IMG/VR virus record: IMGVR_UViG_3300021426_000065
Span: 39,173 to 103,172 of that record
Length of the DNA stretch: 64,000 nucleotides
Direction: 5' to 3' (one strand)
Source of the DNA: a virus
Lineage: Duplodnaviria; Heunggongvirae; Uroviricota; Caudoviricetes
A model generated the notes under the pieces. That model saw only the letters and a list, made by a program, of their open reading frames with translations. It made no database searches and was not told where the DNA came from. Made by a program: the position numbers and the translations under genes. This document shows, piece after piece, positions 1,720 to 21,019 of the stretch. Within the stretch, counting starts at the first letter, position 1. Each line of letters opens with the position of its first letter.

Positions 1720-2143
1720 GGGCGTTCACCTCACTTTGGTAATTATATTATAACATAGGGGGTTTTGGCGTGTCAAGTATTTGATTATTGGTTTTACCGG
1801 GTGGTTTCAAAATTTACCGGGTGGGGAAAGAATGGGAGGCCCCATGTCAAATACGGTCAAAATCCGGCCAAATCCTACATGTATGCCCCCCGGGGTATGC
1901 TGACGCGCGAAAACTTGCGCGCGCAATGGTATAAAAAAATTGCACCCTATCGCATTCTGTTATTTTTTTGTATACAACGGTTTAAGGCGTCTAACCGCCG
2001 GTTAAACGTATTTAACTACGGCGGGGATATAGTCAAAAAATTTTTTTCAAAAAATCAAAAAAAACTGTTGACAAGCGCCCGGTTATATGGTAATATATAG
2101 TCAATCAAGGGGCCGGGACACCCGGCCGGGAAGGGGCTTCACT

Positions 2144-2614
2144 ATGACACACGAGAGCATGATTTATTGGTACAACAAGACCGCGGGCGCGCACTCCTAC
2201 ATTGTCGGTTTTATCAAGTCCGGCCGCCTGTATTACGTCAAGCTGACATTCGCTGAGCTGACCGCGCTGCTGAAAGCTGACAAGTGCAGCGCCGCGCGCG
2301 GCGGATATAACAAGATTCGTGTCCGCGTCAACAGCGACCAAGCGTGGATGTTCATCGCAAGCGGTAAAGCTGTGGAAGTCGGGACCGTGGGCGACCTGAG
2401 TGCCGACAGCAAGCACAACAAAGGCGAAAACTTCGAGCGGATTATCACCGAAAAGCTGACCAGCGAAAAGTGGGAAAAGGACAGCGTTCCCTACTACATC
2501 AAGGGCGACATCAACGTAAACGGCGAAGAAATCCAGATTAAGCTCGACGGCGCTGAGCTGACCAACGAAAAAACCCTGAGCAACGTGCTCAACCTGCTGG
2601 GACTGGCTGAATAA
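2144..2614 (+). CDS. Hypothetical protein, family A; possible PD-(D/E)XK-like C-terminal domain
   Basis: GENFE...GDINVNGEEIQIK; clearly paralogous to 6860..7309; own promoter and terminator. Confidence 0.8.
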   Translation: MTHESMIYWYNKTAGAHSYIVGFIKSGRLYYVKLTFAELTALLKADKCSAARGGYNKIRVRVNSDQAWMFIASGKAVEVGTVGDLSADSKHNKGENFERIITEKLTSEKWEKDSVPYYIKGDINVNGEEIQIKLDGAELTNEKTLSNVLNLLGLAE

Positions 2615-2698
2615 GCCAGCCCAGCAAGAAAAAAGTACTTGACAAGCTAAGCAAACTATGATATAATAAGACCAACAAAAGAGAAGGGAGCTACAACA

Positions 2699-2908
2699 AT
2701 GAAGAAGGGCATGACTTATGAGCAGGTAATGGAGCTGGCGCGGGAATATGGTTGGCAGATGCTGGACGAGCAGGATAAAGAAGAAGACGGTTACCAGTGG
2801 AAAGAAATTGACATCCAGATGGATTCAGAATATGGTTTATGCCTATATTTAGTAGATGGTAAAGTAAAAGATATGGACAAATTCGCAATGTGGGATTATG
2901 TGGGCTAA
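2699..2908 (+). CDS. Small acidic hypothetical protein
   Basis: Own promoter, AAGGGAG RBS, terminator hairpin over the stop. Confidence 0.75.
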   Translation: MKKGMTYEQVMELAREYGWQMLDEQDKEEDGYQWKEIDIQMDSEYGLCLYLVDGKVKDMDKFAMWDYVG

Positions 2909-3003
2909 TAGCCCACATAATTTTTTATGCTTGATTAGACCCCTTTAACTTGTATGCCGGCGTAAGAGTTAGAGGCATCTAACCACCAACGAAAAAAGAA
3001 GGC

Positions 3004-3318
3004 TTACTCAGCCTTCTTTTTCTCTTCTGCCTTGCGGGCCTTTTCAGCTTCCTTCTCAGCCTTTTCGGCTTCCTTCTGTGCCTTCTCAGCCTTCCATACT
3101 TCCGCGACTTCAAACGGGTCGAACACGGGCGTTACTTTCGTAGCTTTATACGCTTTGGTTTTCACAGTGACTTCACACCAGACTTCCTGTCCATCGACCT
3201 CTTGCAGAATCGCCCAAGACGCTTCGCCAAACTGTACAGCATCATGCGCGTTCAGCACATCAGTAAAATAAGCAACGGTGTTCGCGCGGGCAACAGACTT
3301 AATCTCAGCAGCGTTCAT
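3004..3318 (-). CDS. Hypothetical protein, family B (Lys/Ala/Glu-rich C-terminal tail)
   Basis: CCAGAAAGGA leader before ATG 3318; similar to 8200..8607 and 14152..14487. Confidence 0.8.
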   Translation of the reverse strand: MNAAEIKSVARANTVAYFTDVLNAHDAVQFGEASWAILQEVDGQEVWCEVTVKTKAYKATKVTPVFDPFEVAEVWKAEKAQKEAEKAEKEAEKARKAEEKKKAE

Positions 3319-3477
3319 AGTGAATCCTTTCTGGTTTTTAGGACTTTTCCTTGTCCTTTGTGTAATCATTATAGCAGATAACTATGATATTGTCAAGGGG
3401 TTTTGAAAAATTTTTTCGCCGGCGCAGTTAGATGATACTAACCGAATGGCATTAAAAAAGAGGGCATTGCCCTCTTT

Positions 3478-3921
3478 TTACGCACACAGCGAATAGATGC
3501 TAATTACGGGAGTAATCCACTTCTTGATTTTTCTATATCCATATCGAAACTGACGAGTTTTATAATAAGGATTATCAATAATATACTTGTTACCTTTTGC
3601 ATCAGTTACTTCAATTTGCAAAGGATAACCTTCATCCTCAAACGGACCATACTCTTCAACTTCAATCTGAATCGGTTCACCCTGTTTGGTATCAACAGTA
3701 ACAATATTATAATTGCGCAGAGTCCGCAGCATGGCCGCGATGTGAGTTGCGTTAGACTGCTTCAAATAGTCCGCACTATCACTATACACTGCCTTGCGAA
3801 TATCAGCAACACTACTACGCGGATTCGCGTGAAGATACTCAATAACTTCGTCCAGTTTTTCAGTTGTCCACTTGGCTTTGGTCACAGCAGAAAACATGTC
3901 TTCATAACGAGTGGTCTTCAT
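3478..3921 (-). CDS. Putative winged-helix DNA-binding protein
   Basis: SSVADIRKAVY...HIAAMLRTLRNYNIV pattern; conserved leader before ATG 3921. Confidence 0.65.
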   Translation of the reverse strand: MKTTRYEDMFSAVTKAKWTTEKLDEVIEYLHANPRSSVADIRKAVYSDSADYLKQSNATHIAAMLRTLRNYNIVTVDTKQGEPIQIEVEEYGPFEDEGYPLQIEVTDAKGNKYIIDNPYYKTRQFRYGYRKIKKWITPVISIYSLCA

Positions 3922-4079
3922 AATCTTTACCTTTCTGGTTTGTTGAGGTTTTCCTTCCTCTTTACGTGTATATAATACCATATAAAAATACGGTTGTCAA
4001 GGGTTTTTTTAAAAAAAGTTTTTTTATTTTTTTTGAAAAAATGCTTGACATTTATCAGGCTTTATGTTATTATATAGTC

Positions 4080-4197
4080 ACGGGGAGAGAGGCAGATACT
4101 CCCGCCGAACCCGCTCTTTAAGGGCGCAGACACAAGGGTTCTCAAAGGTGCAAATAAAAGGTCTGCAATCTAAGCGGTTTTAACCGCTTATTTTTTC
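4080..4197 (+). ncRNA. Candidate small structured RNA (possible pseudoknot)
   Basis: Promoter 4045-4073, no ORF, intrinsic terminator TAAGCGG-TTTTAA-CCGCTTA plus T6; stems GAACCC/GGGTTC and GCAGAC/GTCTGC cross. Confidence 0.55.
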
Positions 4198-4340
4198 TGT
4201 GTCAGTTAGAAGTGTCTAACCATCGTGCCGGCGCAGAAGTTCAATGCATCTAACCAGAAAATTTTTATAAATATACTTGACACGATAGAAAAAACATGTT
4301 ATAATAAACACGTCCAAAGGGCAGAAAGGAAGTAATCATC

Positions 4341-4622
4341 ATGAAGAACAACACTCTTGGTCTTATCATTGCCGCAATCGTCTCTCTTCTTGTTGCTTTT
4401 CTCTGTCTGCATCAACCACAACATAAGACTTATACCTTACAGGGCGAAATCTATAAGGTAGATTATACAGAAAATATAACACTAATACGTGATGAGAACG
4501 GTCATGTGTGGGGTATGAAGGGCACCGAAGTGCGGCCACAAGGCACATCAGTCATCATGACAATGGATAGCATGAACACTACCACAATAGTAGATGATGG
4601 AATAATTGAAATAAAGTATTGA
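4341..4622 (+). CDS. Small membrane-anchored protein with OB-like beta domain
   Basis: N-terminal hydrophobic helix; AGAAAGGA RBS. Confidence 0.75.
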   Translation: MKNNTLGLIIAAIVSLLVAFLCLHQPQHKTYTLQGEIYKVDYTENITLIRDENGHVWGMKGTEVRPQGTSVIMTMDSMNTTTIVDDGIIEIKY

Positions 4623-4676
4623 CATAGTAGAACAGATATGGTATAATAAAGGCATCAAAAGAAGGGAGTAACTACC

Positions 4677-4847
4677 ATGTACGAACTTATCACCGCATGG
4701 AATGACCAGACCACTAAAACAGAAAGAGCCGACTTGCCCAGCATTATGAGAGCGTTAGCAATTTATTATGAAGAACCAGACTTCTTTACTGCACATATTA
4801 CGAATCTCGCCACAGGAGAGGAAATAGCGACTTTTACGAAGAGTTGA
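4677..4847 (+). CDS. Small hypothetical protein (56 aa; not in track)
   Basis: Own promoter from 4619, AAGGGAG RBS, terminator over TGA. Confidence 0.7.
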   Translation: MYELITAWNDQTTKTERADLPSIMRALAIYYEEPDFFTAHITNLATGEEIATFTKS

Positions 4848-4995
4848 CGCAAGTCAACTCTTTTTATTATATCACGATTAGAGCGGTCTAACTAATTCGC
4901 CGGCGAATCTCAAACGGAAAATAATTTCAAAATACTATTGACAAAATCCCGAAACCATGTTATAATATAGTCATCAAATGAAGGAGGACGTTCCA

Positions 4996-5145
4996 ATGAC
5001 TGTCTACTATGTAATTTCATGCCACGGGTTTATCGGCAACATGCACTATGGTACATATGAAGAGGCCCAAAAGGCCGCGGCCATACGACGCGCGATTAGT
5101 GGCCAGCCGTGGGAAGTTAAACAAATTTGCGCAATTTCAAGGTGA
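4996..5145 (+). CDS. Small hypothetical protein (49 aa; not in track)
   Basis: Own promoter, AAGGAGG RBS, terminator over TGA. Confidence 0.7.
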   Translation: MTVYYVISCHGFIGNMHYGTYEEAQKAAAIRRAISGQPWEVKQICAISR

Positions 5146-5347
5146 TTGGAATAATCCAATCACTTTTTTAGTTCATAATTTTAATCCCATAATTTCAAAA
5201 AATTTTTTTAAAAAGGTATTGACAAAGTATCCCGAAAGTGATATAATGGAATTGGTACCCATAAATTATAGTTAGATGACTCTAACTAATATGCCGGCGC
5301 GTGAGTTAAAGACAACTAACTCAATTTCATTTTAAAAGGGTTTGACC

Positions 5348-5515
5348 TTAGAGGTCAAACCCGAAGTAATCATTTTCCCACATTCCTTCCACCAGTCGCT
5401 TGTATTCTTTGATGGTTTCAACGCTCTCGCCGCGTTCCGCCATGCGGAAGGCTTCCACGGTTTCTTCAACTTCCAGGCCCCAGGTCCGCGCGATTTCATT
5501 CAGCAGTTCTTCCAT
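5348..5515 (-). CDS. Small acidic hypothetical protein
   Basis: Conserved CCAGAAAGGA leader before ATG 5515; own promoter. Confidence 0.7.
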   Translation of the reverse strand: MEELLNEIARTWGLEVEETVEAFRMAERGESVETIKEYKRLVEGMWENDYFGFDL

Positions 5516-5579
5516 CTCAGTTCCTTTCTGGTGTTGGGGATTTTCCTTTCCCTTTTGTGACTTTATTATAACACCGATT

Positions 5580-5750
5580 TTAAGATTTGTCAAGCACATT
5601 TTTCAAATTATTTTCTTCATTCCAATGGTCAAACATATTCATTTCAACAAAGCGGAAATGTTCTTCTGCCATTGAATGCGGATATTTCTTCTTCATTTCT
5701 TCAAACCAATTTTTGAGTTCCTGTTCAGTGTAAGTGATTTCCTTCTTCAT
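5580..5750 (-). CDS. Small hypothetical protein
   Basis: AAGGGAG RBS, own promoter. Confidence 0.7.
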   Translation of the reverse strand: MKKEITYTEQELKNWFEEMKKKYPHSMAEEHFRFVEMNMFDHWNEENNLKNVLDKS

Positions 5751-5804
5751 TGTTGCGGCTCCCTTCATTTGATGTATTTATTATAGCACGGGTTTTAGGA
5801 TTTG

Positions 5805-5969
5805 TCAATACTTTTTTTGTTCTTCTTTGTTTAATTTGTCAGCGATTTCTATGACGTTCCTTCTGTACAATCTATCATTAACAATCCATTTACATTCTTT
5901 TTTATCCCACACTCCCCAAGTGTAGAATGTATTCCAGAGATACTGCCGAGTTACGTACCGCTTTGTCAT
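5805..5969 (-). CDS. Small hypothetical protein
   Basis: GGGAGG RBS before ATG 5969, own promoter. Confidence 0.7.
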   Translation of the reverse strand: MTKRYVTRQYLWNTFYTWGVWDKKECKWIVNDRLYRRNVIEIADKLNKEEQKKY

Positions 5970-6048
5970 CGTTTTGTCCTCCCTCTCTTTGATGGCTTTA
6001 TTATAACATGTATCCGGTATTTTGTCAATCCTTTTTTTGAAAAAATTT

Positions 6049-6273
6049 TCAAGAAATTTTTTCAATAACCAACCAAGCGCTATCAATTTCATATGCGTCA
6101 GTTGTTTTTGCTTTGATAGCCTTTCCCCATCCCATTCTGATGCAATGGTCGGCCGAAGAATAGGTATCAAAGATTCCCTTCCATTCACCAAACTTGGTCG
6201 AAAGATCAGGCGTATCACAAAAAGCAATTTTATATCCTTTTTCCTTTTTGCTTTCTTTCTTCAAAAACTTCAT
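6049..6273 (-). CDS. Small hypothetical protein
   Basis: GGAGGA RBS before ATG 6273, own promoter. Confidence 0.7.
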   Translation of the reverse strand: MKFLKKESKKEKGYKIAFCDTPDLSTKFGEWKGIFDTYSSADHCIRMGWGKAIKAKTTDAYEIDSAWLVIEKIS

Positions 6274-6429
6274 TGCTTCGTCCTCCATTTCTTCGGCAGG
6301 TTCTTCCCTTACCGTGATTAAAGTATAACACATAATGGCCGGGTTGTCAACAGTTTTTTAAAAAACTTTTTAAAAAATTTTTTCAAAAACCCCTTGACAA
6401 ATCCGCGCCGGCATGTTATAATATAATCA

Positions 6430-6492
6430 CAGTCGAGGACACCGGGGAGACCGGAGAGAGGCCGGGTAGGTTCAGGAGGGGTCCAACCATAG
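6430..6492 (+). ncRNA. Candidate short G-rich RNA
   Basis: Promoter TTGACA 6394 to TATAAT 6417-6422; no start codon before the repeat at 6493; CCGG-GGAGA-CCGG hairpin. Confidence 0.35.
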
Positions 6493-6592
6493 GTTAGAGG
6501 ACTCTAACAGATGTGCCGGCGCGAAGGTTAAAGGACTCTAACATGACATTAATTAAAAAGGGCCCCGGCCCTTTTTAATATTTTCAATATTT

Positions 6593-6778
6593 TTATGCTA
6601 TGCCTAAAATATTTGCAATAACTACGGCAGGGATAGCAAGGACGAAAGCCGCGATTAGTAGGCGCGCGGGCTTGCCATTATCCAAATCTTTCAAGGCAAA
6701 ATATACACCAAATGGTGTAACCGCGAAGAGTTCAAAGGCGATAATTGCGACGAAGATGATGGTCAAGATAGTGGTCAT
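6593..6778 (-). CDS. Small two-TM membrane protein
   Basis: Two hydrophobic helices; GGGAGG RBS. Confidence 0.75.
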   Translation of the reverse strand: MTTILTIIFVAIIAFELFAVTPFGVYFALKDLDNGKPARLLIAAFVLAIPAVVIANILGIA

Positions 6779-6859
6779 TTGTTTGCCCTCCCGTTTCCTT
6801 TTTACGTATTTATTATACCATACACTTCGGCGCTTGTCAATACCTTTTTGAAAAAAACT

Positions 6860-7309
6860 TTAAGCCGCCATGCGGCTTAAAGTTTTTTCATTGGTGAGTT
6901 CCGCGCCGTTAAACTTAATCTGAATCTCTTTACCATTAACGTTAATATCACCAGCGACATTAAAGGGGACAGAATCTTTTTCCCACTTTTTGTTTGTGAA
7001 CATTTCCGTTATAACCCGTTCAAAATGTTCACCGTCATTATACTTATCTTCAAAGTTCAGCATTGACGCCATACCCAGCGCAATCGCCGCGCCACTGTTC
7101 ACCAGCTTCCACATTTCATCGCTGGACACGCGAACACGAATTTTTGCCCAGCCGCCGCGCTTACTGCTCATCCGGTCCATTTTCAGGTATGCATCATTGA
7201 TATGCTCTTGCATAACATAGTACAGAATACCATTCATAACAAATCCGATAATATAAGCATTGGCGGCGCTCATCAGGTTGTAGAGCTTAATCATCTGTTC
7301 ACGTGTCAT
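6860..7309 (-). CDS. Hypothetical protein, family A (paralogue of 2144..2614)
   Basis: Shared RGG.KIRVRV, FER.ITE..T..KWEKDSVP, GDINVNG.EIQIK..GAELTNEKTLS. Confidence 0.8.
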   Translation of the reverse strand: MTREQMIKLYNLMSAANAYIIGFVMNGILYYVMQEHINDAYLKMDRMSSKRGGWAKIRVRVSSDEMWKLVNSGAAIALGMASMLNFEDKYNDGEHFERVITEMFTNKKWEKDSVPFNVAGDINVNGKEIQIKFNGAELTNEKTLSRMAA

Positions 7310-7576
7310 GGTGTTTACCTTCCTTTCTTATCCCCTTGGGACGCCTTTATTATAACATGCCGGGCGGCACTTGTCAACCCCTTTTTAAAAAAATTTTAAA
7401 TTAATTTTTCGCCGGCAGCTTAGTTAAAGGCGTCTAACTATTCTGCCGGCGCGGGAGTTAGAGGCGTTTAACTCAAAAATTTTTTTCAAAAAGTGCTTGA
7501 CAACCGCGCCCGCCTATGGTATAATTCAAGTACAGAAAGGGGAAGGAAAACCCCACAAACCAGAAGGGACGCGCGC

Positions 7577-8017
7577 ATGGAAAAGATGGTATGGTTCGAC
7601 ATGGATGGCACTATCGCCAACCTCTACGCCGTAGAGGGATGGCTGGAAGACCTGCGAGCTGAACGCACGCGGCCCTATGACGTAGCCGCGCCTATGCTGA
7701 ACTTCTCTCAGCTGGCAAAACTGCTGCATAGGGCACAGCGCAACGGCTGGAAGCTCGGAATTATCAGCTGGACAAGCCGCAACGGCTCTGACCTCTATAA
7801 TGGCGCGGTTGCTCTCTCTAAGCTGTGTTGGCTTCACAAGCATCTTCCAAGTGTCAGCTGGGACGAAATCCGCATTGTAAATTATGGCACCAATAAATAC
7901 ATGGAATGCGGTGGTGGTATCCTGTTCGATGATGAAGAAGGCAACCGCAAGGCATGGCAGGACAAAGCCTTTGACCCCACAGAGATAATCAGTGTATTGC
8001 GCGAACTGGGCGAGTAA
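7577..8017 (+). CDS. HAD-superfamily hydrolase (5'-nucleotidase-like)
   Basis: Motif I FDMDGT, motif II S, motif III K, motif IV LFDD. Confidence 0.85.
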   Translation: MEKMVWFDMDGTIANLYAVEGWLEDLRAERTRPYDVAAPMLNFSQLAKLLHRAQRNGWKLGIISWTSRNGSDLYNGAVALSKLCWLHKHLPSVSWDEIRIVNYGTNKYMECGGGILFDDEEGNRKAWQDKAFDPTEIISVLRELGE

Positions 8018-8199
8018 TCGCCCAGTTAAATACGTTTAACTCCTTCGCCGGCGCAGCGGTTAGAGGCATCTAACCAAGAGCAAAAATTTTTTAAAAATTT
8101 TTTTAGAAAAATACTTGACAACTTTTCAAAATTGCAGTATAATAATAACGTAATCAAGGGAAGGAAAACCCACCAAACCAGAAGGGAAGTAAAAAAACT

Positions 8200-8607
8200 A
8201 TGACACAGACCGCTCTGAACACCAATCTCCGCAACGTTACTCTCCGCGACATTATTGAGTTTGTGTCCCAGAAGTACAACATGGACGCGCTCTCCATTTC
8301 CTCTTCCGCGATTGTGTTCCCCACTACTGACGAAGAGGGCAACGAGAAGTATGTAAAGATTTCCGTTTCTGTTCCTCGCGGTACTCGTGATGGCAAGGGC
8401 GGTTATGAAGCCTTTGACGGTGAGGTTGCCGCTGATGACTACAAGGCCGAACTGGAAGAGAAGGCCGCGAAGAAGGCCGCAGCCGCCGCGAAGAAGGCCG
8501 CGAAGATTGCCGCCGACCAGGCGAAGCGCGAAGCGAAGAAGGTTGTTAAGGAACTGAATGAAAAGGGCCTTGACGGCATGATTCATGAGGACATGGACGC
8601 GGAGTAA
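8200..8607 (+). CDS. Hypothetical protein, family B (KAAKKAA tail)
   Basis: Conserved leader; Lys/Ala-rich tail. Confidence 0.8.
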   Translation: MTQTALNTNLRNVTLRDIIEFVSQKYNMDALSISSSAIVFPTTDEEGNEKYVKISVSVPRGTRDGKGGYEAFDGEVAADDYKAELEEKAAKKAAAAAKKAAKIAADQAKREAKKVVKELNEKGLDGMIHEDMDAE

Positions 8608-8779
8608 CCCGCGCCCCTTTTTATTAAAGCGAGTTAGAGACGTTTAACCACGCCGGCGCGGCAGTTAAGGGGCGCTAACTAAAAAAATTTTCAAAAACCA
8701 TTGACAAACATCCTTTCGCGTGGTATACTATGCCATGAAGTGAAGGAAAACACTACAAACCAGAAAGGAAATTAACCCA

Positions 8780-9445
8780 ATGAATCGTATGGTATTTGAC
8801 TGTGAAACTTGCATGACTGACCGCTTGCCAAATGGCCAACTGGATGTAGAAAATGGTCAGGCTTATGACCTTGGTGGACAGGTTGTTAATGATGGCGGCA
8901 TCATCCTTGATAAGTTAAATCTTATCAACGGGGATGTATTTTATGGTATGCCAAAGGCCATGAGTGACGCATACTATAAAGACAAGTTCCCGCGATACAT
9001 TGAAGAAATCAAGCGCGGCGAACGTCAAGTAGTAGATACATGGAAGATGTGGAAGATTTTCAACCAGATGTGCCAAGACTATCATGTGGAAGAAGTGGTC
9101 GCGCATAATATCAGATTTGACATTACGGTGCTTAATGCGACTATGCGTTACCAGACCAAGAGCAAGAAGCGATTTTTCCTCCCGTATGGCATCAAGACCG
9201 CAGATACCATGAAGATGGCAAGAAAGGTAATTTGTAATACCAAAGACTACATCAAGTTTTGTAAAGAAAATAACTACATGACCGCGCATGAAACCCCGCG
9301 CCCCAAGGCCACAGCAGAAGTTATTTGGCGCTATTTGTCCAACAATAACGACTTTGAAGAAGCGCACACTGGGCTTGCAGATGTAGAAATTGAAACCGAA
9401 ATCCTCATGGAATGTCTCCGCAGAGGGTACACGGAGTTAGAGTAA
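8780..9445 (+). CDS. DnaQ/DEDDh-family 3'-5' exonuclease
   Basis: ExoI FDCET, ExoII AHNIRFD, ExoIII HTGLADV. Confidence 0.88.
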   Translation: MNRMVFDCETCMTDRLPNGQLDVENGQAYDLGGQVVNDGGIILDKLNLINGDVFYGMPKAMSDAYYKDKFPRYIEEIKRGERQVVDTWKMWKIFNQMCQDYHVEEVVAHNIRFDITVLNATMRYQTKSKKRFFLPYGIKTADTMKMARKVICNTKDYIKFCKENNYMTAHETPRPKATAEVIWRYLSNNNDFEEAHTGLADVEIETEILMECLRRGYTELE

Positions 9446-9678
9446 TCTAACTCCGCGGCCGGCGCAGTTAGAGGCGTTTAACCAATTACAAAAAATTTTT
9501 TCAAAAAATGCTTGACAATATCCTAAAATTGTGATATTATATAATTGTTCCAAGGGGAACGAAAGAGAAAAAGAACTTCAAAAAAAGTTAAAAAACTCTT
9601 GACAAACCCCAAAGAACATGATATAATAAACTCACAACAAGGGAAGGAAAACCCTAAAAAACCAGAAAGGAACTTATT

Positions 9679-10047: not shown

Positions 10048-10201
10048 TCCGCCTTCTTTTTTACGCGAGAGTTAAGGGCATCTAACTCGGCGCCCGGCGC
10101 GAAAGTTAAAGACATTTAACTAAAATTTTTTTCAAATAACTATTGACAACAACTTGCTACCATGTTATAATAATAATGTACCAAGGAAAGGGGATGCTAA
10201 C

Positions 10202-10699
10202 ATGCGTAGCAAGAGCAGTTACGAAGTCCGCGCGGAACGTTTCATCAAGATGATTGCCCCGTTCTTGATTACTTGCCGCAGTATTGATGACTATTATTGC
10301 GCAGTAAATACTTTTAACTTCCGTTATCATAGAGCAGTTATTATGAAGCATGGTATTTCCCGCATCGCGCTTATTACTTCTGATTATGTTATTAAAATTA
10401 CTTATGATGAAGAATCTGACTTTGGTACTTGTGAAGATGAGCGTCTGATGTATGAAGAAGCAAAACTTGCAGGATTTGATTATCTTTTCGCCCAGATTAC
10501 ACATGTAGAATATGAGGGAAAAGATTACTATATTATGCCCCGTATCAATGGCATTGGCAAATATGAAGATGATGCTTTTGAATATATGACCGAAGAAGAA
10601 AATGATTGGGTTAGCAATCGTATTTATGACTTACACAATAAAAATTATGGGTGGAAAAATGGTCATGTAGTTTTGATTGATTATAGTGCCCATTATTGA
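10202..10699 (+). CDS. Minimal protein-kinase-like fold protein
   Basis: G.SR, VIK, E, DLHNKN catalytic loop, LIDY. Confidence 0.75.
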   Translation: MRSKSSYEVRAERFIKMIAPFLITCRSIDDYYCAVNTFNFRYHRAVIMKHGISRIALITSDYVIKITYDEESDFGTCEDERLMYEEAKLAGFDYLFAQITHVEYEGKDYYIMPRINGIGKYEDDAFEYMTEEENDWVSNRIYDLHNKNYGWKNGHVVLIDYSAHY

Positions 10700-10798
10700 C
10701 ATGGGCGCCGGCGGCCGAGTTAAAGGCATCTAACTACTTGACAAAAATTTTTTAGAAAAACACTTGACACGGTTCCAAATTTGTAGTATACTTATAGT

Positions 10799-10942
10799 GT
10801 TCCAAGGGACAGAAGATGTGAGTGGGAACGTAGTGCAGAGGTTCAAGTCCTCTCGCGGTGGTACAAAGTAACGGAATTGTCAGCCGTGCTCGCCGCGCCG
10901 AAATGGGGTTGCCGCGTTTGGTGGATTGACTGACCACACCAC
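10799..10942 (+). ncRNA. Candidate structured RNA containing a tRNA-like T-arm
   Basis: Promoter 10764-10792; no convincing ORF; AGAGG-TTCAAGT-CCTCT T-arm at about 10837-10853; further stems GTTCC/GGAAC and CGCGGTG/CGCCGCG. Confidence 0.5.
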
Positions 10943-11070
10943 AAAAAATCTTCAAAAAAAGTCTTGACAAACCAAACAAAGTATGGTATAATCAAGATGT
11001 TCCAAACGAAGGAACGAAACAAAATGAACGGGAAGGAAAACCCAAGACAAACCAGAAAGGAATTAAAACT

Positions 11071-11406
11071 ATGACTAAGAACACCATGAACGCTATCTAC
11101 TCTGTGCTGTCTGGCGCTGACTTCGAGGGCAAGGCCGAGGTTATGGCCGAGGTTGAGAAAGAACTGAATCGCGGTGCTGCGGAGCGTGAGGCCAAGGTCG
11201 CGATGTATGAGGCCGCTCGTCCCGTAGTCTTTGAGGCTATGCGCACGATCGGCGCGCCCGCGACTGTTGCGGACATCTTCGCGGAGGCCGAGAAGGAACT
11301 GCCCGAGGGCTTCACGAAGAACAAGGTGCAGTACGGTCTGCTCCACTACTGGAATGACGCGGTGGTCAAGACCGAAGGCAAAGTCAATATGTACGCGGTG
11401 AAGTGA
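11071..11406 (+). CDS. Putative winged-helix protein, family C
   Basis: TVADIFAE...FTKNKVQYGL.HYW.DAVVKTEGKVNMY. Confidence 0.8.
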   Translation: MTKNTMNAIYSVLSGADFEGKAEVMAEVEKELNRGAAEREAKVAMYEAARPVVFEAMRTIGAPATVADIFAEAEKELPEGFTKNKVQYGLLHYWNDAVVKTEGKVNMYAVK

Positions 11407-11598
11407 GGTAATGGGCGAGAGTTATTCTCGCCCATTCCTTTTGCCTATTAGTTAGAGGACTCTAACTCGCGGCCGGCGAAAAAGTTAGACGTAGTTAACT
11501 AATTTTTTTTAATAAAACTGTTGACAAAATAAAAAATGTATGGTATACTCTTATCAAGAAGTGAAGGAAAACACTGAAACACCAGAAAGGAACCCGCT

Positions 11599-11817
11599 AT
11601 GTATCAGCAAGTAAAGTTTGCAATTATCAACCCCGATTTTATTAACTCTGATGATGACAGAACTATTTTTGGTGGTATTGCTCTTGTCAATGATGATGGA
11701 ACTATTGCAAATGTGATTTGTGGTTGTTGCGGTAGTGTATTTGAACCCGAGGATATTAAGATTCTTGAACGTTATAATGATTGGATGGACTTGACAGAGG
11801 TGATTATCGGTGACTAA
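11599..11817 (+). CDS. Small Cys-containing hypothetical protein
   Basis: VICGCCG motif; conserved leader. Confidence 0.75.
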   Translation: MYQQVKFAIINPDFINSDDDRTIFGGIALVNDDGTIANVICGCCGSVFEPEDIKILERYNDWMDLTEVIIGD

Positions 11818-11962
11818 GAAAAAGAAAACCAAAGTCCGCGACTCTTACGAAGTAAATAGAAGTATTCGCCGCGACTGGGGCGCAATCAGTCCAGTAACCA
11901 AAGTAATTCCAGACAAGCGAGACAAGAAGCCGAAGCATAAGAAAGGATGGGATGAAGAATGA
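11810..11962 (+). CDS. Small basic hypothetical protein (not in track)
   Basis: GTG start after GAGGTG; RRDWGAISPVTKVIPDK; overlaps both neighbours. Confidence 0.55.
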   Translation: MTKKKKTKVRDSYEVNRSIRRDWGAISPVTKVIPDKRDKKPKHKKGWDEE

Positions 11963-12180
11963 ATAACAATGATGCAGAAAAATATATATTATCCAAAGAG
12001 ATTGACGAAGCAGTAAAAATTATTAGTGAAGGAACGCGCAGACGATATATATTGCAATGTGCTAAGAATGACATAGACCGAGGCAAGTTAAATTATATCG
12101 AATTAAATACAGTAATAAGTTGGATGAAACATAGCAATAAAACTTATGATGAAATTATTAGTTGTGTGAAAGGAGAATAA
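11959..12180 (+). CDS. Hypothetical protein
   Basis: Operon-coupled ORF. Confidence 0.65.
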   Translation: MNNNDAEKYILSKEIDEAVKIISEGTRRRYILQCAKNDIDRGKLNYIELNTVISWMKHSNKTYDEIISCVKGE

Positions 12181-12184
12181 TAAA

Positions 12185-12373
12185 ATGAAAATGACTCTTG
12201 TTTACACTGAAAAAGAATATGATACTTGTCAAAACTTTATTACTTTTCTTACTCATCTTTCAGAAGAAATGGACAACGCAGCAGAACTTACTAACGAAAG
12301 AGAAAACATTATAGATAAAACTAAAGACTTAATTACTGACATTATGGATTTTTTTCCAGTGGAAGAAGAATAA
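12185..12373 (+). CDS. Hypothetical protein
   Basis: AAAGGAG RBS. Confidence 0.7.
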   Translation: MKMTLVYTEKEYDTCQNFITFLTHLSEEMDNAAELTNERENIIDKTKDLITDIMDFFPVEEE

Positions 12374-12546
12374 TAAAATAATTTTCATATTGATATTATA
12401 GAAGAAGAGTTAGAGCAATCTAACTCTCACGCCGGCGGCAAAGTTAGATGCATCTAACTAAAAAAATTTTCAAAAAAGTATTGACAACCAATCTTTTATA
12501 TGTTATACTATATTCATCCCAAGGGGATAGAAAGGAAGTAAAAACG

Positions 12547-12762
12547 ATGTACGAAACGACTTGGATAATTAGTAAAGAAAACGAAGATGGTATATTTCCA
12601 ACCGAATTAACCGTATATCATTTTGGAAAGGCCCCTAAGTTCCCCAGTTGGTACATGGAAGCAAATAATTCTTATGTAATTGAAATGATTCAAAACTACA
12701 AGTTGCCAAATCCCTTCTTTACCTTCTTTAAGTGTCTGACCCATCAGTATATTGTTAAGTGA
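12547..12762 (+). CDS. Hypothetical protein
   Basis: Promoter 12481-12509, AGAAAGGA RBS. Confidence 0.7.
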   Translation: MYETTWIISKENEDGIFPTELTVYHFGKAPKFPSWYMEANNSYVIEMIQNYKLPNPFFTFFKCLTHQYIVK

Positions 12763-12776
12763 AAGGAAGTAAGAAA

Positions 12777-13043
12777 ATGAGAGACGCGAAAAAGGGAACC
12801 TATAACGGCGATTATACTTACTGCACCGTTAATGCCTATGGCGATTGCCCTTACTGCGACCAGTGCGGCGTGTGCCATATTGATGACCCTATTGAAGATT
12901 GCGATGACTTCGCGGCGTTCTTTGAGAGTTGGGATGAATGGTTGGACTGTGATGATGTAAACCCAGACGCGCCAGAAGATGAGATTAAATGGGCGGGTGA
13001 TATATACGGATATGAGGATACTTGGGAGGATAATGAAGAATGA
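12777..13043 (+). CDS. Acidic Cys-rich hypothetical protein
   Basis: CPYC..C..C; very Asp/Glu-rich. Confidence 0.7.
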   Translation: MRDAKKGTYNGDYTYCTVNAYGDCPYCDQCGVCHIDDPIEDCDDFAAFFESWDEWLDCDDVNPDAPEDEIKWAGDIYGYEDTWEDNEE

Positions 13044-13210
13044 AAGTGTATATTATTTATCGTTTAGGTGATTATGCGGTACCGCAAGCCATGAGCCTTA
13101 ACTACGATGAAGCAAAAAAGTTCATGAAAGTTCTACAAGATCATGACCCGTATATGCATGATTACTGGATTGAAAGTAAAACATTAAATAATAAGGTAAT
13201 TGAAATCTAA
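13040..13210 (+). CDS. Small hypothetical protein (not in track)
   Basis: ATGA overlap, GGAGG RBS, terminator after TAA. Confidence 0.6.
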   Translation: MKVYIIYRLGDYAVPQAMSLNYDEAKKFMKVLQDHDPYMHDYWIESKTLNNKVIEI

Positions 13211-13353
13211 AACAGACTTCGGTCTGTTTTTCTGCCGGCGCGAAAACTTAACAAAATTGTAATACTTTCGTTATTGTTTTGTAATAATTTCATGTTATAA
13301 TAGTCTCGTAAAGAGGTCAAGGAATAAGACCGAAAAACCAGAAAGGCAACACT

Positions 13354-13758
13354 ATGAAGATTGTAAACATTTTTAGTGAATCTTACCCTCTTAATCCTTG
13401 CGGTCAGGGTGGCATTGAGTTTGATAATAAAACCGCATTGATTGATTACCATGAGCAGGATTGTTGTGAAGAGGTCTATGCTGATTTTTCTAATCTTGAT
13501 AGCGATGTTATGAATTATAATTTTAAGACTATCAATATTAAACCAGTACATTATGGCTTTAAGTTTGGTGATGACCGCCGTATGTTTTTTGTTCCGTGCT
13601 ATAACGTACAGAATGGCTATTATAGCGATGTGCTTAATATTCAGTATGGAGCAATTACAAAGAAAATCATACGCTATGCAAAGGGTAAACCAATATATGG
13701 CAATAGTTTTACTCCGATTAAGTCTTATGATGTCATACCGAAAGATGATATTTATTAA
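13354..13758 (+). CDS. Conserved phage hypothetical protein (HEQDCCE...NGYYS type)
   Basis: Motifs HEQDCCEEVY and NGYYS. Confidence 0.75.
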   Translation: MKIVNIFSESYPLNPCGQGGIEFDNKTALIDYHEQDCCEEVYADFSNLDSDVMNYNFKTINIKPVHYGFKFGDDRRMFFVPCYNVQNGYYSDVLNIQYGAITKKIIRYAKGKPIYGNSFTPIKSYDVIPKDDIY

Positions 13759-13854
13759 AAACTTTTTAAAACCCCTTGACAATCCTTCCCAACTATGATA
13801 TAATAAAGCCATCAAGAGAAGGAAAACTCTTACAAACCAGAAAGGATTCAAACT

Positions 13855-14076
13855 ATGGAAATCAATATTCATGTGGATGAGAATAAAGTATATGAGGCGA
13901 TGGATAAAGCAGAACAGACTATCTGTAATGAGTGGTTTAACGGGAACCGCGATGCTTACGAAGAATGGGCGGGCGACCGCATAAGCGATGGGTTCTGGGA
14001 TCTCATCCAAACTTTAGGCGATATTTGTGGTATCACCATCGACCCCTGTTCCAAAAATCTTCTCAAAAATACTTGA
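13855..14076 (+). CDS. Hypothetical protein
   Basis: Own promoter and conserved leader. Confidence 0.7.
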   Translation: MEINIHVDENKVYEAMDKAEQTICNEWFNGNRDAYEEWAGDRISDGFWDLIQTLGDICGITIDPCSKNLLKNT

Positions 14077-14151
14077 CAAGCGTTTCCGAATATGATATAA
14101 TAATGACATCAGGTGAAGGAAAACACCATTAAACCAGAAAGGAAATTAAGT

Positions 14152-14487
14152 ATGCCGAAACTGACGAAAAATGTTGTTGACACTGACCTTCGTGCTCGCA
14201 TTTTTGATGAGATCATGCCCAAGTATCCCGCAGGTGGCCGCGAATATACGCGCGTTAATGACCGCCAGTATGGCGTCATTCTTGTGGATAAGAACGGCGT
14301 CGAGCGCTACTGCCGCGTGGGCGTTATCGTAGCAGAGGAACGCGAGGACATGACCGCGCGCGAACTCATGCAGAGTGAGATTGACACTTACAACGCCAAG
14401 CAGGAAGAGAAGGCCGAAAAGGCCAAGGCCAAGGCAGAGAAGGCCGCGCACGATAAGGCCGAACGCGAAGCAAAGAAGGGGGAATAA
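14152..14487 (+). CDS. Hypothetical protein, family B
   Basis: Conserved leader; KAEKAKAKAEK tail. Confidence 0.8.
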   Translation: MPKLTKNVVDTDLRARIFDEIMPKYPAGGREYTRVNDRQYGVILVDKNGVERYCRVGVIVAEEREDMTARELMQSEIDTYNAKQEEKAEKAKAKAEKAAHDKAEREAKKGE

Positions 14488-14634
14488 CCCTTCTTTTTTT
14501 CATACTCAGTTAGAAGCGTCTAACTTCCACGCCGGCGCAAAATTTTTTTTAAAAGGTATTGACAAATGCGAGAGCATGTATTATAATATTTATGAAAGTT
14601 GAAGGAAAACAACTTAAACCAGAAAGGGTTTAGC

Positions 14635-15201
14635 ATGTTTACTCTGGATGAAATTAAAGGGCAAGAGCAAGCCAAAAAAGCCATGAATGAACACTATACA
14701 GCTTTACTCGATGCAGATAATACAGAAGATAGAAAAGAACACTTTTCTTTTATGAAAAAGTTGTTTGATAAATATGTATGTATCCGTAAGATTTGGGAAT
14801 ACGTAGAAAACGCGAAGCGTTATGTTTCTCGTTTTTTCAAAAAAATTACAGATGCACTTATTGAACAGGTCAAGCACGATTATTTTTATATTATGAAGTT
14901 TAGAGATTATATCCGCAATGATTCCTTTATTAAAATTGGTTCATCTGTTCATCCAGAAATTAGATTAAAACAGCATGAGCGCTATTATGAGGGATATGAT
15001 GGGGAAATTCTCTACACGTTTGAGACAGGTGATGTGAACTCATCATCTGTTGAAAACGAAGTGCGAGACTATTTTATCCGTAAATACGGCGAAGAAAATT
15101 TTGTTCCAAATGACCGCTTTACTTGTGAAATTGATTTACAAGATATTATTAGTAAGGTTCCTCTTTGCGTAGAACGTCTACGCGCCGCAAAAATTATTTG
15201 A
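14635..15201 (+). CDS. GIY-YIG/T5orf172-like nuclease domain protein
   Basis: YFYIM...FIKIGSS..PEIRLKQ...VENEV. Confidence 0.7.
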   Translation: MFTLDEIKGQEQAKKAMNEHYTALLDADNTEDRKEHFSFMKKLFDKYVCIRKIWEYVENAKRYVSRFFKKITDALIEQVKHDYFYIMKFRDYIRNDSFIKIGSSVHPEIRLKQHERYYEGYDGEILYTFETGDVNSSSVENEVRDYFIRKYGEENFVPNDRFTCEIDLQDIISKVPLCVERLRAAKII

Positions 15202-15286
15202 AAAAGTATTGACAAAATAAAAAAATCATGCTATAATCTATGTGTAAGAAGTCAAGGCCAGACTATAAAACCAGAAAGGTAGTCAC

Positions 15287-15532
15287 ATGTATAAAATTCA
15301 TCGCTATGGTTCCATGTCTTCTACTCTATTTAGCATGGATTTAGAACAATTAAAACGTCAAGTAGAAACACGCGATTATATTAGTTTTTTTAAAAAAGTA
15401 CTTAATTATAAACACGTAGAAATGAAGTGGGAAAAATATCAAAACAAATGGCGTTATTATTGCTATTATTATAGTCCTTATCGTAAAGGTACAAGTAAGA
15501 TGTGTGTAGAAACTATTATTGAATTGAAATAA
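15287..15532 (+). CDS. Hypothetical protein
   Basis: Own promoter and leader. Confidence 0.7.
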   Translation: MYKIHRYGSMSSTLFSMDLEQLKRQVETRDYISFFKKVLNYKHVEMKWEKYQNKWRYYCYYYSPYRKGTSKMCVETIIELK

Positions 15533-15549
15533 GAAAGGAAGTAATAAAA

Positions 15550-15900
15550 ATGAAAATTATTACTACTTATGTCGCTTATGATGACAAAGAGTTTGATACG
15601 CGTGAAGCGTGCGAATCATACGAATGTCTTGCTTGGCAAATAATTGACAAAGCAAATGACACTTATGCTTTTTATGATGCACATTATGATCGTATTTGGC
15701 CAGTATATAAGACTATTGAAGACTGGATAAATTGGTTTGATGCAGTAACAGACACTTGTGATTATGTTAGAGTTCGCGCTATTCCTTCGCATGAGTTACA
15801 TAAGTTTATTTATCGTATCATTGGCGCTTGCTTACCAGAACATAAAATTGGTTGGTTTAAATACGATTATAATACAAATGAATGGGTTAGTGTAGACTAA
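15550..15900 (+). CDS. Hypothetical protein
   Basis: YVAYDDKEFDTREACESYE N-terminus; stop lies inside a repeat box. Confidence 0.75.
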   Translation: MKIITTYVAYDDKEFDTREACESYECLAWQIIDKANDTYAFYDAHYDRIWPVYKTIEDWINWFDAVTDTCDYVRVRAIPSHELHKFIYRIIGACLPEHKIGWFKYDYNTNEWVSVD

Positions 15901-16007
15901 CTCATCCGCCGGCGGCCAAGTTAGAGGACTCTAACTACTATATAAAATTTCTTCAAAAAAATTTAAAAAAGTACTTGACACACTTCCAAATCTATGGTAT
16001 TATATAC

Positions 16008-16103
16008 GTGTCAGGTGAGGGGAGCAACCCTGACAGGTCAAGGTGGTTGCCGAAAGTCAATGGAGACAATACGCATGGACCACGGAAACATTTGGCCACC
16101 AGC
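16008..16103 (+). ncRNA. Candidate two-hairpin small RNA
   Basis: Promoter 15975-16003; TGTCAGG/CCTGACA and GGTGGT/GCCACC stems; no RBS-led ORF. Confidence 0.45.
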
Positions 16104-16170
16104 AAACAAAATGTGCGAAAAAGTTTGCGAAACCCCTTGACAAACAGCAAATCCTGTGCTATAATAAGGA

Positions 16171-16236
16171 TGTAAGCGGTGGCATTAGTTGGGCGGTAAT
16201 GCGTAATTGGGACTGTTAAACCTTCCGCAACTTCCT
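16171..16236 (+). ncRNA. Candidate small RNA
   Basis: Promoter 16137-16165; GCGG/CCGC outer stem and GCATTA/TAATGC hairpin; next promoter follows directly. Confidence 0.4.
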
Positions 16237-16326
16237 AAAAAAAATACTTGACATTCTCCACGAAATGTGGTAGAATATAAAAGAAGAAAGACAAGGACAG
16301 TCTTAAAAACCAGAAAGGGAAAAAGT

Positions 16327-16668
16327 ATGAAGAACTCCACCATGAACACCATCTATGCCACCCTGTCCACCGTTGACTTCGCTGACAAGGAAGCCGTTAT
16401 GACCGAACTGTACAATGAGATTCATCGCGGTGACGCCGCGAAGGAAGCCAAGGCCGCGGAATATGCGAACGCGCGCGAGGTAATCCTTGAAGGTCTGCGC
16501 GTTGCGGGCAAGGCCATCACCCTTGCAGAACTGTGGGATGAGGTAAAGGATTCGCTCCCGAACTTCACGAAGAATCAGGTTTCGTATGGTCTGCGTAACT
16601 ACTGGGCCGATGATGTTGCGGTCACTGTTGGTAAGGTCAACATGTACTCTCTGAAAGAGGGCGCGTAA
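16327..16668 (+). CDS. Putative winged-helix protein, family C
   Basis: ITLAELWDE...FTKNQVSYGLRNYW.DDV.VT.GKVNMY. Confidence 0.8.
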   Translation: MKNSTMNTIYATLSTVDFADKEAVMTELYNEIHRGDAAKEAKAAEYANAREVILEGLRVAGKAITLAELWDEVKDSLPNFTKNQVSYGLRNYWADDVAVTVGKVNMYSLKEGA

Positions 16669-16927
16669 GCGCTCTCTTTTTTCGCGCATAGTTAGACACA
16701 TCTAACTCGGGTGCCGGCACATTGGTTAGAGGCCACTAACCAAAAAATTTTTTGAAAAAAGTATTGACATGCGATATAATCTATGTTATAATACTTATGA
16801 AAGTGAGGGGAGGCAATGATGGAGCAACTTGAAGAACTCTTAATTCAGAATCAGGAAATTTTAATTAGACTGCGAAATGAAGAAGAACACGAAGAAACCG
16901 CATGGTATCGGAAGGATGGGATAAAAG

Positions 16928-17134
16928 ATGATTATGTTCACCGATGATGTTGTCACTGCTTGTCAGACATTTTTTACGACACTTGGTAATTATGGTCTTA
17001 CCATTGCTATCAAAGACATTCAGGCGGCATATGACGGGATTGTCTTCCACACTGATAATGGAGTTAGTTACAAATATTGGTATGTGACTAAAACCGTGAC
17101 TAAACTTGAACCTTGGAGGAGTGTAAAAAGATGA
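16928..17134 (+). CDS. Hypothetical protein
   Basis: Operon ORF. Confidence 0.6.
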   Translation: MIMFTDDVVTACQTFFTTLGNYGLTIAIKDIQAAYDGIVFHTDNGVSYKYWYVTKTVTKLEPWRSVKR

Positions 17135-17292
17135 CTGAAAAACTCGCGCTTCAAATTGCTTACAACATCCTCAACGATGAACTTGACACACAAGATGATG
17201 AGTATGGTTATGGCGCGGCGGATACAGAGTACTATCAGGAAATCAAAGACGCCGCGGCGAAAATCAAAGAAATGATTAAAGAAAGGAAGTAA
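17131..17292 (+). CDS. Small hypothetical protein (not in track)
   Basis: GGAGGAG RBS, ATGA overlap. Confidence 0.6.
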   Translation: MTEKLALQIAYNILNDELDTQDDEYGYGAADTEYYQEIKDAAAKIKEMIKERK

Positions 17293-17296
17293 GAAT

Positions 17297-17500
17297 ATGA
17301 TCGAAGATGAGCGTTGCCCTTATTGCGGTTCTGACAACTTTAACACAGATGATTTTAATGAAAACTATGACATTGACGAAGTATCATTTTATTGGCGTTG
17401 TAATTGTAATGAATGTAAAAAAGTTTTTCATATTACCAAGTGGTATAAATTAACTGAAACATTAGTGCAGACCAATGAGGAACTATATGGGTTAGAGTAA
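17297..17500 (+). CDS. Zn-ribbon protein
   Basis: CPYC...CNEC; stop inside a repeat box. Confidence 0.75.
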   Translation: MIEDERCPYCGSDNFNTDDFNENYDIDEVSFYWRCNCNECKKVFHITKWYKLTETLVQTNEELYGLE

Positions 17501-17629
17501 TCTAACCCATCTGCCGGCGCGAAAGTTAGTCATCTCTAACTTTAAAAAAGTCCTTGACAACCGCAACAATTTATGCTATACTATATCCAGAAGTCAAGGA
17601 AAAGACTCTAACACCAGAAAGGAACCACT

Positions 17630-17833
17630 ATGGAAGTCGTATTCATTAACTCTAATTGCGAAGGTATTTTCCACAGCATGACCGCCGCGGAGATTCATAT
17701 TTGCGCGCTTGCGTCAGAGGGTGATGCAGAGTTCGTCTCGCGGTGGTATGATTATGACCACAAGTGCCATGTTCTCATCTACGACCATTTCATTGCAAAG
17801 ATTTATACCACGGACGTAATTGAAGTAGAGTGA
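17630..17833 (+). CDS. Hypothetical protein
   Basis: Own promoter, leader and terminator. Confidence 0.7.
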   Translation: MEVVFINSNCEGIFHSMTAAEIHICALASEGDAEFVSRWYDYDHKCHVLIYDHFIAKIYTTDVIEVE

Positions 17834-18180
17834 TGCGTAAGCATCACTTTTTGCATAACGGTTAGAGGTCTTTAACTTTCGTGCCGGCAAATTAGTTAGA
17901 GTCGTTTAACTTATATACCGGCGCCAAAATTGTGCCTCTCCCACCACTAACATATTATCACATATCTGTCAAGTTGTCAAGAGGGAAATTGTTAAGAAAG
18001 TGTTACAATTTTATTACAATTTTATTACAAGTCTGTTGCGGAGTTAGTTCACTCTAACTAACTAATTGTGTCAATAATTTGACGCGCGGTCAAAATTATG
18101 GTATACTATATATAGAAAAGGAAAGGAGCAAGCTGGAAAGCTGGGCCTGTCAAGTATTTGACAAGCTGGATAAGCTGGAT

Positions 18181-18561: not shown

Positions 18562-18635
18562 AATCCACGTTTATTTTTATATTGACAAGCTGCGCAATTT
18601 ATGGTATACTGAAAGTAGAATCTTTTTTAAAAATA

Positions 18636-19390: not shown

Positions 19391-19394
19391 ATAA

Positions 19395-20750: not shown

Positions 20751-21019
20751 ATTTTTCACCTCATTTATATTATACCACATTTTATATTGATTTGTCAATG
20801 CTTTGATGTTGTTCCCGCGGCATCAAAAATGTGTCGGCAACGAAAGTTTCGTTCTCGTATTGCAATTTCATTTTGATTTCAATTTGCAATTTCAATTTCA
20901 TTTTCAATTCTATATACGCCCGAAAATTTCCCCCTTTAAAAACCCATAACCCCACCCACTTGACTTTTTTTAAAAATTGATGTATAATTATTATAAAGAA
21001 AGGGAAGGGGATTTGAAGT

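Follow-up and report, generated by a model that had tools for sequence, protein, structure and literature searches.

Phages are known to carry binding sites for the regulators of their hosts, such as the DtxR site at tox of corynephage beta, the Fur site at stx1 and the Spo0A boxes of phi29, where a single site or a handful governs a promoter or replication. The terminal pre-early region of T5 carries small early genes behind strong promoters of host type, the promoter/stem-loop (PeSL) cassettes of RB49-like T4 phages are recombination points for early-gene gain and loss, and in integrons small genes are flanked by attC repeats with RYYYAAC and GTTRRRY cores. Here we describe a region that resembles each of these in part, an early-gene array with repeated palindromic elements in a 64,000-nt stretch (the window; positions 39,173 to 103,172 of IMG/VR record IMGVR_UViG_3300021426_000065) of a large gut phage, G000. 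In its full form the element consists of two 16-bp boxes, GTTARA-N4-TYTAAC, on either side of a GCCGGC core. The array is a real feature and not an integron, and its sequence makes it most likely a set of sites for an iron repressor of the host.

Unlike the few sites at tox, stx1 or on phi29, these boxes form a region-wide array at unit borders and are accompanied by a second conserved motif; we found no report of such a host-operator array on a lytic phage in open-access papers. With the SPO1 host-takeover module, located in a terminal repeat (PMC6873191), the array shares small early genes, strong host-type promoters and, if it is indeed terminal, a terminal region of more than 10 kb, but the excerpted text of that paper mentions no comparable operator array, and the terminal repeat proposed here is read from contig depth.

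Composition of the element

Exact copies of the box number 24 in the 179,225-bp genome, and every one lies inside positions 2,001-17,910 of the window; at one mismatch the window holds 36 matches (35 within the array) against 1.09 expected, a count reached in none of 100 shuffles. The 37 boxes form 16 pairs and five singles which, with a box-less GCCGGC at 13,234, make 22 elements. A preliminary description of the window had counted 22 copies confined to these 16 kb, and exact boxes indeed occur nowhere else in the genome. It had also reported a 6-6-6 arrangement of spacer, core and spacer in 12 of 16 two-box copies, and the boxes of these 12 do start 34 bp apart (one has the core CCCGGC), those of the remaining four being 21, 31, 31 and 33 bp apart.

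Comparison of orthologous elements in two relatives revealed no substitution at 92 CCGG positions and 17 at 460 half-site positions, and the spacers, earlier described as varying freely, changed at 24-26% of positions (N4, 44 of 184; N6, 72 of 276). The consensus kept across lineages is GTTAG-N6-CTAAC with a CCGG core, and in the window 31 of 32 boxes adjoin a CCGG, against a background of 3%.

The N6 arms match at 0-3 of six positions and thus are not complementary, in agreement with the earlier statement that this is no classical attC hairpin. At the variable pair, positions 5/12, A-C is as frequent as G-T (6 and 7 of 32), positions 6/11 are A-A or T-T at 26 of 53 in one relative, and five elements folded on both strands gave z-scores of +1.3 to -5.5 and different folds. 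The A-C, A-A and T-T pairs and the lack of a common fold are the reasons why we read the site as double-stranded half-sites and, together with the unmatched arms, why an attC-like or RNA hairpin was rejected. As first proposed, the element appears to be a double-stranded site for a protein, spaced at 34 bp, in first-expressed DNA. It shares a central CGCCGGCG palindrome in clusters with the RacA ram site, TGACGCCGGCGTCA (PMC4914108), a 14-bp palindrome whose terminal TG/CA steps, by that account, are required for specific RacA binding; these steps are not conserved here, and RacA was rejected as a candidate.

The box at iron-uptake loci of Clostridia

When the full-element pattern (two boxes with CCGG) was scanned over 185,579 prokaryote genomes, it matched phage-like contigs and two chromosomal-looking contigs, on which it precedes feoA/feoB and DUF2325-feoA. 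The genomes behind these two (G001 and G002) hold further boxes before feoB, a feoAB fusion, a P-type ATPase, ABC transporters and enolase. Forty loci around boxes, from 19 of 151 sampled Clostridia genomes, were picked before their neighbours were known. Within 1.5 kb of 36 of 61 exact boxes lies feoA, feoB, a DtxR-family gene or DUF2325, compared with none of 18 reversed-pattern control loci; such a neighbourhood was found in 14 of the 19 genomes and at nine of the 19 first sites. A DtxR-family gene adjoins the box in eight of the 40 loci, and FecCD, flavodoxin/DUF3793 and ZIP genes also occur near host boxes.

The geometry of the host sites would suit repression: in 23 of 29 box-promoter pairs the box starts 35-44 nt past the start of the -35, i.e. 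at the transcription start, and eight of 16 tandem pairs are 33-35 bp apart. In one genome, G090, 34-bp pairs of the window's GTTAGA-N4-TCTAAC variant stand both at feoAB and at the DtxR-family gene, and the variant with A at position 6 is present in G090, G212 and G213. Of exact GTTAG-N6-CTAAC boxes the array itself has about 18, which equals the count in the richest of the 151 Clostridia genomes.

The host proteins encoded beside boxes, 125 residues long, resemble MntR/DtxR/IdeR structures (E 1e-24 to 1e-17); they retain a Cys-Glu-His motif, which we take to be the DtxR/IdeR metal site. Like DtxR/IdeR/MntR operators, the box has inverted TTAG/CTAA half-sites six bases apart, tolerates single C-to-T changes, and is found in plausible hosts at iron-uptake promoters and at the regulator gene. 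IdeR is described as binding the 14-bp TTAGG-N4-CCTAA as one dimer, with the same tolerance of single C-to-T changes (PMC8464063); relative to that site the box has flanking G/C and a free position 6. IdeR operators use an overlapped 19-bp box where we see tandem sites 33-35 bp apart, and, in contrast to known DtxR/IdeR operators, the array has 37 copies off the repressing position on a phage without integrase. Judging from sequence, the box is likely the operator of a host DtxR/IdeR-family iron repressor; adjacency and geometry suggest the neighbouring DtxR-family protein as its binder, and a regulon of feoAB, FecCD and flavodoxin together with the Cys-type metal site points to iron as the metal. 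We found no characterization of this clostridial DtxR-family iron regulon in the open-access literature.

The box is also found in other phages. A loose viral scan covered 13 of 64 parts; many matches were chance-like, and only those rich in boxes or promoters were followed. All 25 viral records picked from pattern matches hold the box, in 2-27 exact copies (control 0-1) that lie mostly within promoter-dense regions, and in 11 of 17 other sequences tallied at least half of the boxes have a neighbouring CCGG. In G157 (L263 15,152-15,227) and G163 (L267 6,716-6,932 and 11,825-12,060) the boxes form gene-free lattices in 20-bp steps. Separately, box-bearing regions of several phages contain 5-11 Rex-like palindromes each (L258 of G167, L256-L257 of G166, L201, and L264-L265 of G160), which suggests panels of host operators. 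Rex-type boxes were not clearly enriched in the window, with 19 found at three mismatches against 12.6 expected and none in the array at two mismatches. A metagenome-assembled genome labelled Acutalibacteraceae (G004) includes at least three phage-like array contigs (L164-L174, L200, L201) with 77 exact boxes in total; these are possibly mis-binned and are not evidence of host.

A proposed decoy, possible cis control and the candidate binding protein

We consider it somewhat probable that the 37-copy array is a decoy that titrates the host iron repressor and thereby switches on iron import. Entering first, and in two copies as a terminal repeat, the array would bring about 74 boxes per virion genome, with about 18 exact sites per array before any doubling by terminal repeat or replication. 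The boxes would draw the DtxR/IdeR-family repressor off the host chromosome, and the derepressed iron import could then feed iron-sulphur (Fe-S) enzymes of the phage, whose genome encodes the Fe-S or Fe-S-dependent enzymes NrdD, Fer4_12, FeThRed_B and an Fe-S oxidoreductase. Such a decoy would copy the tandem architecture of the host sites at places where the phage's own promoters stay unblocked.

Contig depth hints at the terminal repeat. Unique contigs within the array were 1.6-2 times as deep as the flanks in two DNA runs, X1 (six unique array contigs, four at 33.6-37.3 and two at 30.9 and 24.7; 19.3-21.3 outside) and X2 (46.7-56.9 in array contigs, 20.9-24.7 outside), with the proviso that contig depth is not copy number. 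The array, which begins just past the terminase-side genes, is probably a long direct terminal repeat of about 1.9-19 kb, that is, the first-injected DNA. Junctions seen where contigs were aligned to the array mostly joined one promoter to another with short flanks and were set aside.

The position of the boxes relative to promoters sets phage and host apart. Only three of 292 phage box-promoter pairs have the box at +33 to +44, whereas 23 of the 29 host pairs have it at +35 to +44, and in 237 of the 292 phage pairs it lies upstream, with phage boxes placed upstream of UP (upstream promoter) tracts or between terminators. Being off the repressing position, the boxes are not repressing operators of phage genes. 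The array has 40 promoter-like sites in 16.3 kb (2.5 per kb, compared with 0.27 elsewhere), and 18 of these have a box 29-67 nt upstream of the start of the -35, the other 22 being equally good without an upstream box. The elements (positions in the window; all unstranded) and the array that holds them are as follows.

Early-gene array, 1980..18058, unstranded: about 40 sigma-70-type promoters, small genes and 22 elements
Element 1, 1980..2016: two boxes with a 5-nt spacer, upstream of promoter 2,068
Element 2, 2934..2983: box-N6-GCCGGC-N6-box between convergent gene ends; no promoter
Element 3, 3418..3442: core and one box, upstream of minus-strand promoter 3,396
Element 4, 4205..4254: full 34-bp form, upstream of promoter 4,277
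Element 5, 4877..4904: box and core, upstream of promoter 4,938
Element 6, 5271..5320: full form at a convergent end; the -35 at 5,219 lies 52 nt before
Element 7, 6493..6542: full form between convergent units
Element 8, 7411..7472: core-box-core-box between divergent promoters 7,377 (-) and 7,497 (+); three boxes at this position in two relatives
Element 9, 8025..8074: full form, upstream of promoter 8,115
Element 10, 8633..8679: two boxes 31 bp apart, upstream of promoter 8,701
Element 11, 9436..9482: two boxes 31 bp apart; the preceding gene's stop codon lies within box 1
Element 12, 10071..10120: full form with core CCCGGC, upstream of promoter 10,143
Element 13, 10707..10734: core and one box, upstream of promoter 10,764
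Element 14, 11451..11499: two boxes at 33 bp; a 431-bp unit indel in a relative has the core as its junction
Element 15, 12409..12458: full form; two relatives differ by a 498-bp unit indel with the core as its junction
Element 16, 13234..13239: bare GCCGGC core, no boxes, at a unit border; also present in relatives
Element 17, 14509..14536: box and core, upstream of promoter 14,559
Element 18, 15886..15935: full form; upstream stop codon within box 1
Element 19, 16691..16740: full form, upstream of promoter 16,764
Element 20, 17491..17540: full form; upstream stop codon within box 1
Element 21, 17861..17922: full form with trailing ACCGGC, at a convergent end
Element 22, 18043..18058: single box without core, upstream of promoter 18,079

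The claim that the element separates self-contained units therefore stands in part: it lies at many unit borders, but with a box within 75 nt upstream of only 18 of the 40 promoter-like sites it does not do so for every unit.

Several observations weigh against a decoy fed by a host operator. The bare box is barely above control when averaged over the 151 Clostridia genomes, where 8-18 sites form the tail and 29 genomes have none; 23 of the 40 host loci lack a feo, DtxR or DUF2325 match, and these loci, drawn from the listed sites with some omitted, are not a random sample. No CRISPR or DNA link was found between the phage and the family of G090, a DNA comparison with 38 genomes of that family giving five weak matches and two checked genomes showing no CRISPR array. 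The depth signal comes from a single study, in which X1 is possibly the source sample. Moreover, a decoy needs no CCGG beside nearly every box, and among hosts only two pairs, both selected by the pattern, have one; CCGG is probably a second, phage-specific site that the decoy model leaves unexplained. Finally, two host boxes do stand upstream of a promoter at phage-like distances, in terminator-like hairpins (about -56 before an Fe-S enzyme and -48 before a DUF134 operon), and in two other phages the box is fixed at -25 (G165) or overlaps the -35 (G166), as if controlling promoters there.

These last points lead to the principal alternative, which we consider unlikely: the same host repressor would act in cis, the metal-loaded protein bound upstream activating, counter-silencing or insulating early promoters, so that early expression would follow the iron status of the host. 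DtxR sites upstream of the -35 are described as activating in C. glutamicum (PMC1382209), the box precedes 18 of the 40 promoter-like sites, and G165 holds its -25 offset 16 times; the stop codons of several genes fall within box 1 with no hairpin there, as would suit a protein roadblock. Box-promoter distances are also clustered, with a period near 8 bp. Yet they show no 10.5-bp phase in the window and two relatives, and class-I activation with helical phasing was rejected on this ground, the pooled value being weak and not independent. Further against cis action, the promoters are near-perfect consensus with A/T tracts whether boxed or not, four elements at convergent ends face no promoter, and other phages have gene-free box lattices. 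Decoy and cis action are not mutually exclusive.

It is quite unlikely, in our view, that a phage-encoded protein binds the box or core, so that the array would organize, protect or anchor the first-injected DNA or shut early genes off later; such a protein might also act on the host iron regulon. No match to PF02742 (the DtxR metal-binding domain) or Fur was found in G000, nor any to PF02742 in five other array phages, and of 17 viral DtxR-like loci none is on an array contig. Support for a phage binder comes from the phage-specific, invariant CCGG, from three winged-helix paralogues within the array and from a conserved winged-helix gene of the replication module, whose product has a weak DtxR N-terminal match (E 9e-4), is DtxR-family by one source's name, and aligns with the host family over 33 columns of the DNA-binding helix at 96% probability. 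This protein, however, lacks the metal/dimerization domain, its recognition helix differs (SVPAVTGS, compared with SKPSVSxA in the host family) and its best solved relatives are MarR/DeoR types; G156 and G158 carry boxes without a PF01325 match, and distant phage lineages keep the box unaltered, as they would if the target were a host protein. The binder of the box is thus, from sequence matches, probably not phage-made, and the three paralogues and the replication-module protein remain candidates, above all for the CCGG core.

Returning to the decoy, we put forward a wider proposal tentatively, as a possibility that falls short of probable: in an entire group of large clostridial phages the first-injected DNA may be a host-takeover effector that needs no protein product, whose arrays and lattices of operator copies strip the iron repressor from the host chromosome and so switch on ferrous-iron import, and whose adjacent CCGG docks a second, phage-made protein.

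Unit turnover, array genes and significance

The preliminary description had put forward an integron-like or shuffling system of cassettes as a candidate and had seen no recombinase in the window. In a Pfam scan of 189 open reading frames, mostly in code 15 and with a few proteins above 1,400 residues omitted, no tyrosine or serine recombinase (PF00589, PF00239) was found in the complete genome; nor was a tyrosine recombinase found in five other array phages. Fifteen pairwise comparisons among the window and five close relatives gave no inverted match above 200 bp, even though the site is symmetric, and gene order is collinear among close relatives. Whole units do turn over, as had been supposed: these six sequences differ by 17 distinct unit indels (duplicates removed by hand), with junctions in promoter/leader repeats (eight), in ribosome-binding sites (RBS), start codons or no homology (five), spanning core and promoter (two), or in the 8-10-bp CCGGCGCG core alone (two). 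Microhomology at RBS or start codons was 3-15 bp at some junctions, and at least several gene replacements terminate at box 1. Site-specific shuffling thus mostly fails, with no recombinase or inversion found and a core that is sole junction in only two of 17 cases; the fallback offered earlier, an operator or organizer, is the better reading, although a host protein as likely binder had not been considered.

That the element is a site-specific recombination site, exchanging or inverting cassettes with GCCGGC as crossover and a host or unrecognized recombinase, is very improbable. In its favour are the two indels with only the CCGGCGCG core as junction homology and two more that include it, the invariance of the core (0 of 92) and the replacements ending at box 1. 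Against this, 13 of the 17 junctions lie elsewhere, some in RBS/start microhomology; the phage encodes a Sak4-like annealase; elements share no fold; and in hosts the box stands in a regulatory context. Unit gain and loss is likely ordinary short-homology recombination by the Sak4-like annealase at any shared repeat. The element sometimes anchors such turnover, and any shared repeat can serve.

Among described systems, an integron attC array was rejected for want of an IntI tyrosine recombinase and of a complementary-arm hairpin. The inner ends of the element do resemble RYYYAAC/GTTRRRY, and repeats flank small genes, but 18 nt separate the cores, with no complementary arms, common fold or integrase; and where integron cassettes are promoterless and co-oriented, the units here have their own promoters, 40 promoter-like sites on both strands, and relatives are collinear. 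Nor does the array behave as a shufflon or invertase system, with no inversion in the 15 pairs and no linked recombinase. As in PeSL cassettes, repeated promoter-leader units are recombination points, units being gained and lost via homology in repeated promoter elements at eight of 17 indels and, mixed with the core, at two more; here it is chiefly the promoter/leader repeat that plays this part rather than the palindromic element.

Promoter-like sites occur on both strands between 2 and 7.4 kb, as expected from units reported to face both ways there, and the paralogues said to occupy different slots are found at 2144/6860 and at 9679/11071/16327. Other features of the array are listed below.

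Second repeat family, 3326..17622, unstranded: promoter and leader (AAACCAGAAAGG), 16 copies, all within the array
Conserved phage protein, 6860..7309, minus strand: invariant E/D/QxK residues; paralogue at 2,144-2,614
Coiled-coil and winged-helix protein, 9679..10047, plus strand: paralogues at 11,071-11,406 and 16,327-16,668

The protein at 6,860-7,309 is predicted to be nuclease-like. With its paralogue it belongs to a 150-aa phage family (481 matches) with invariant E97, D121 and Q130-x-K132, like a PD-(D/E)xK nuclease, and an Atlas search with this family gave one lead, ThaI-type endonucleases; apart from this ThaI-like lead, Atlas searches yielded clusters of phage proteins only. A fold search with the 9,679 protein returned generic winged-helix matches (Z 8-9.6; cullin WHB, Z-alpha, Fur), with DtxR not among its 50 rows, which excludes nothing. 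Contigs from RNA libraries touch all three winged-helix paralogues and several leader-bearing genes; such contigs cannot demonstrate expression.

At 17,917-17,980 (-) a short non-coding stretch, which includes a GGGAGAGG (Shine-Dalgarno-like) tract, would be read from a promoter into element 21. This unit is conserved in four relatives and in J77, with two copies each in both distant ones, and similar short GA-rich units follow promoters 4,045 and 6,394. The stretches at 10,790-10,950 and 16,000-16,240 are promoter-led, with GC-rich stems and without a convincing open reading frame, and are possible small RNAs; Rfam and tRNA (ARAGORN) scans of the window gave no match. A T5orf172-type endonuclease unit (14,635-15,201) is present in the window only, among four relatives covering the site.

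G000 is complete, a single contig with a 144-bp end overlap. Its long-open-reading-frame coverage is 0.80 in code 15 and 0.48 in code 11, on which basis TAG is likely read as glutamine; such recoding by phages has been described (10.1101/2021.08.26.457843). In-frame TAG is common in structural genes, and the 26 array genes examined stop at TAA or TGA and have none. An AT-rich stretch containing inverted repeats (18,600-20,798) borders the array on its right, next to a helicase-like gene whose frame is open in code 15 only; this stretch may be an origin or a genome end. The part of the genome beyond the window encodes a gyrase-type topoisomerase, DnaE polymerase, NrdD, ClpP, PhoH, 17 tRNAs and two purine-permease-family genes (L029-L032).

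The loci described here outline a putative DtxR-family iron regulon of Clostridia. Box position 6 differs between host lineages, so that the box variant of a phage may help to predict its hosts. If the decoy reading is true, non-coding DNA of a phage would serve as a natural sponge for a transcription factor and so reprogramme metal uptake by the host as infection begins, which would link phage success to iron availability in gut communities.

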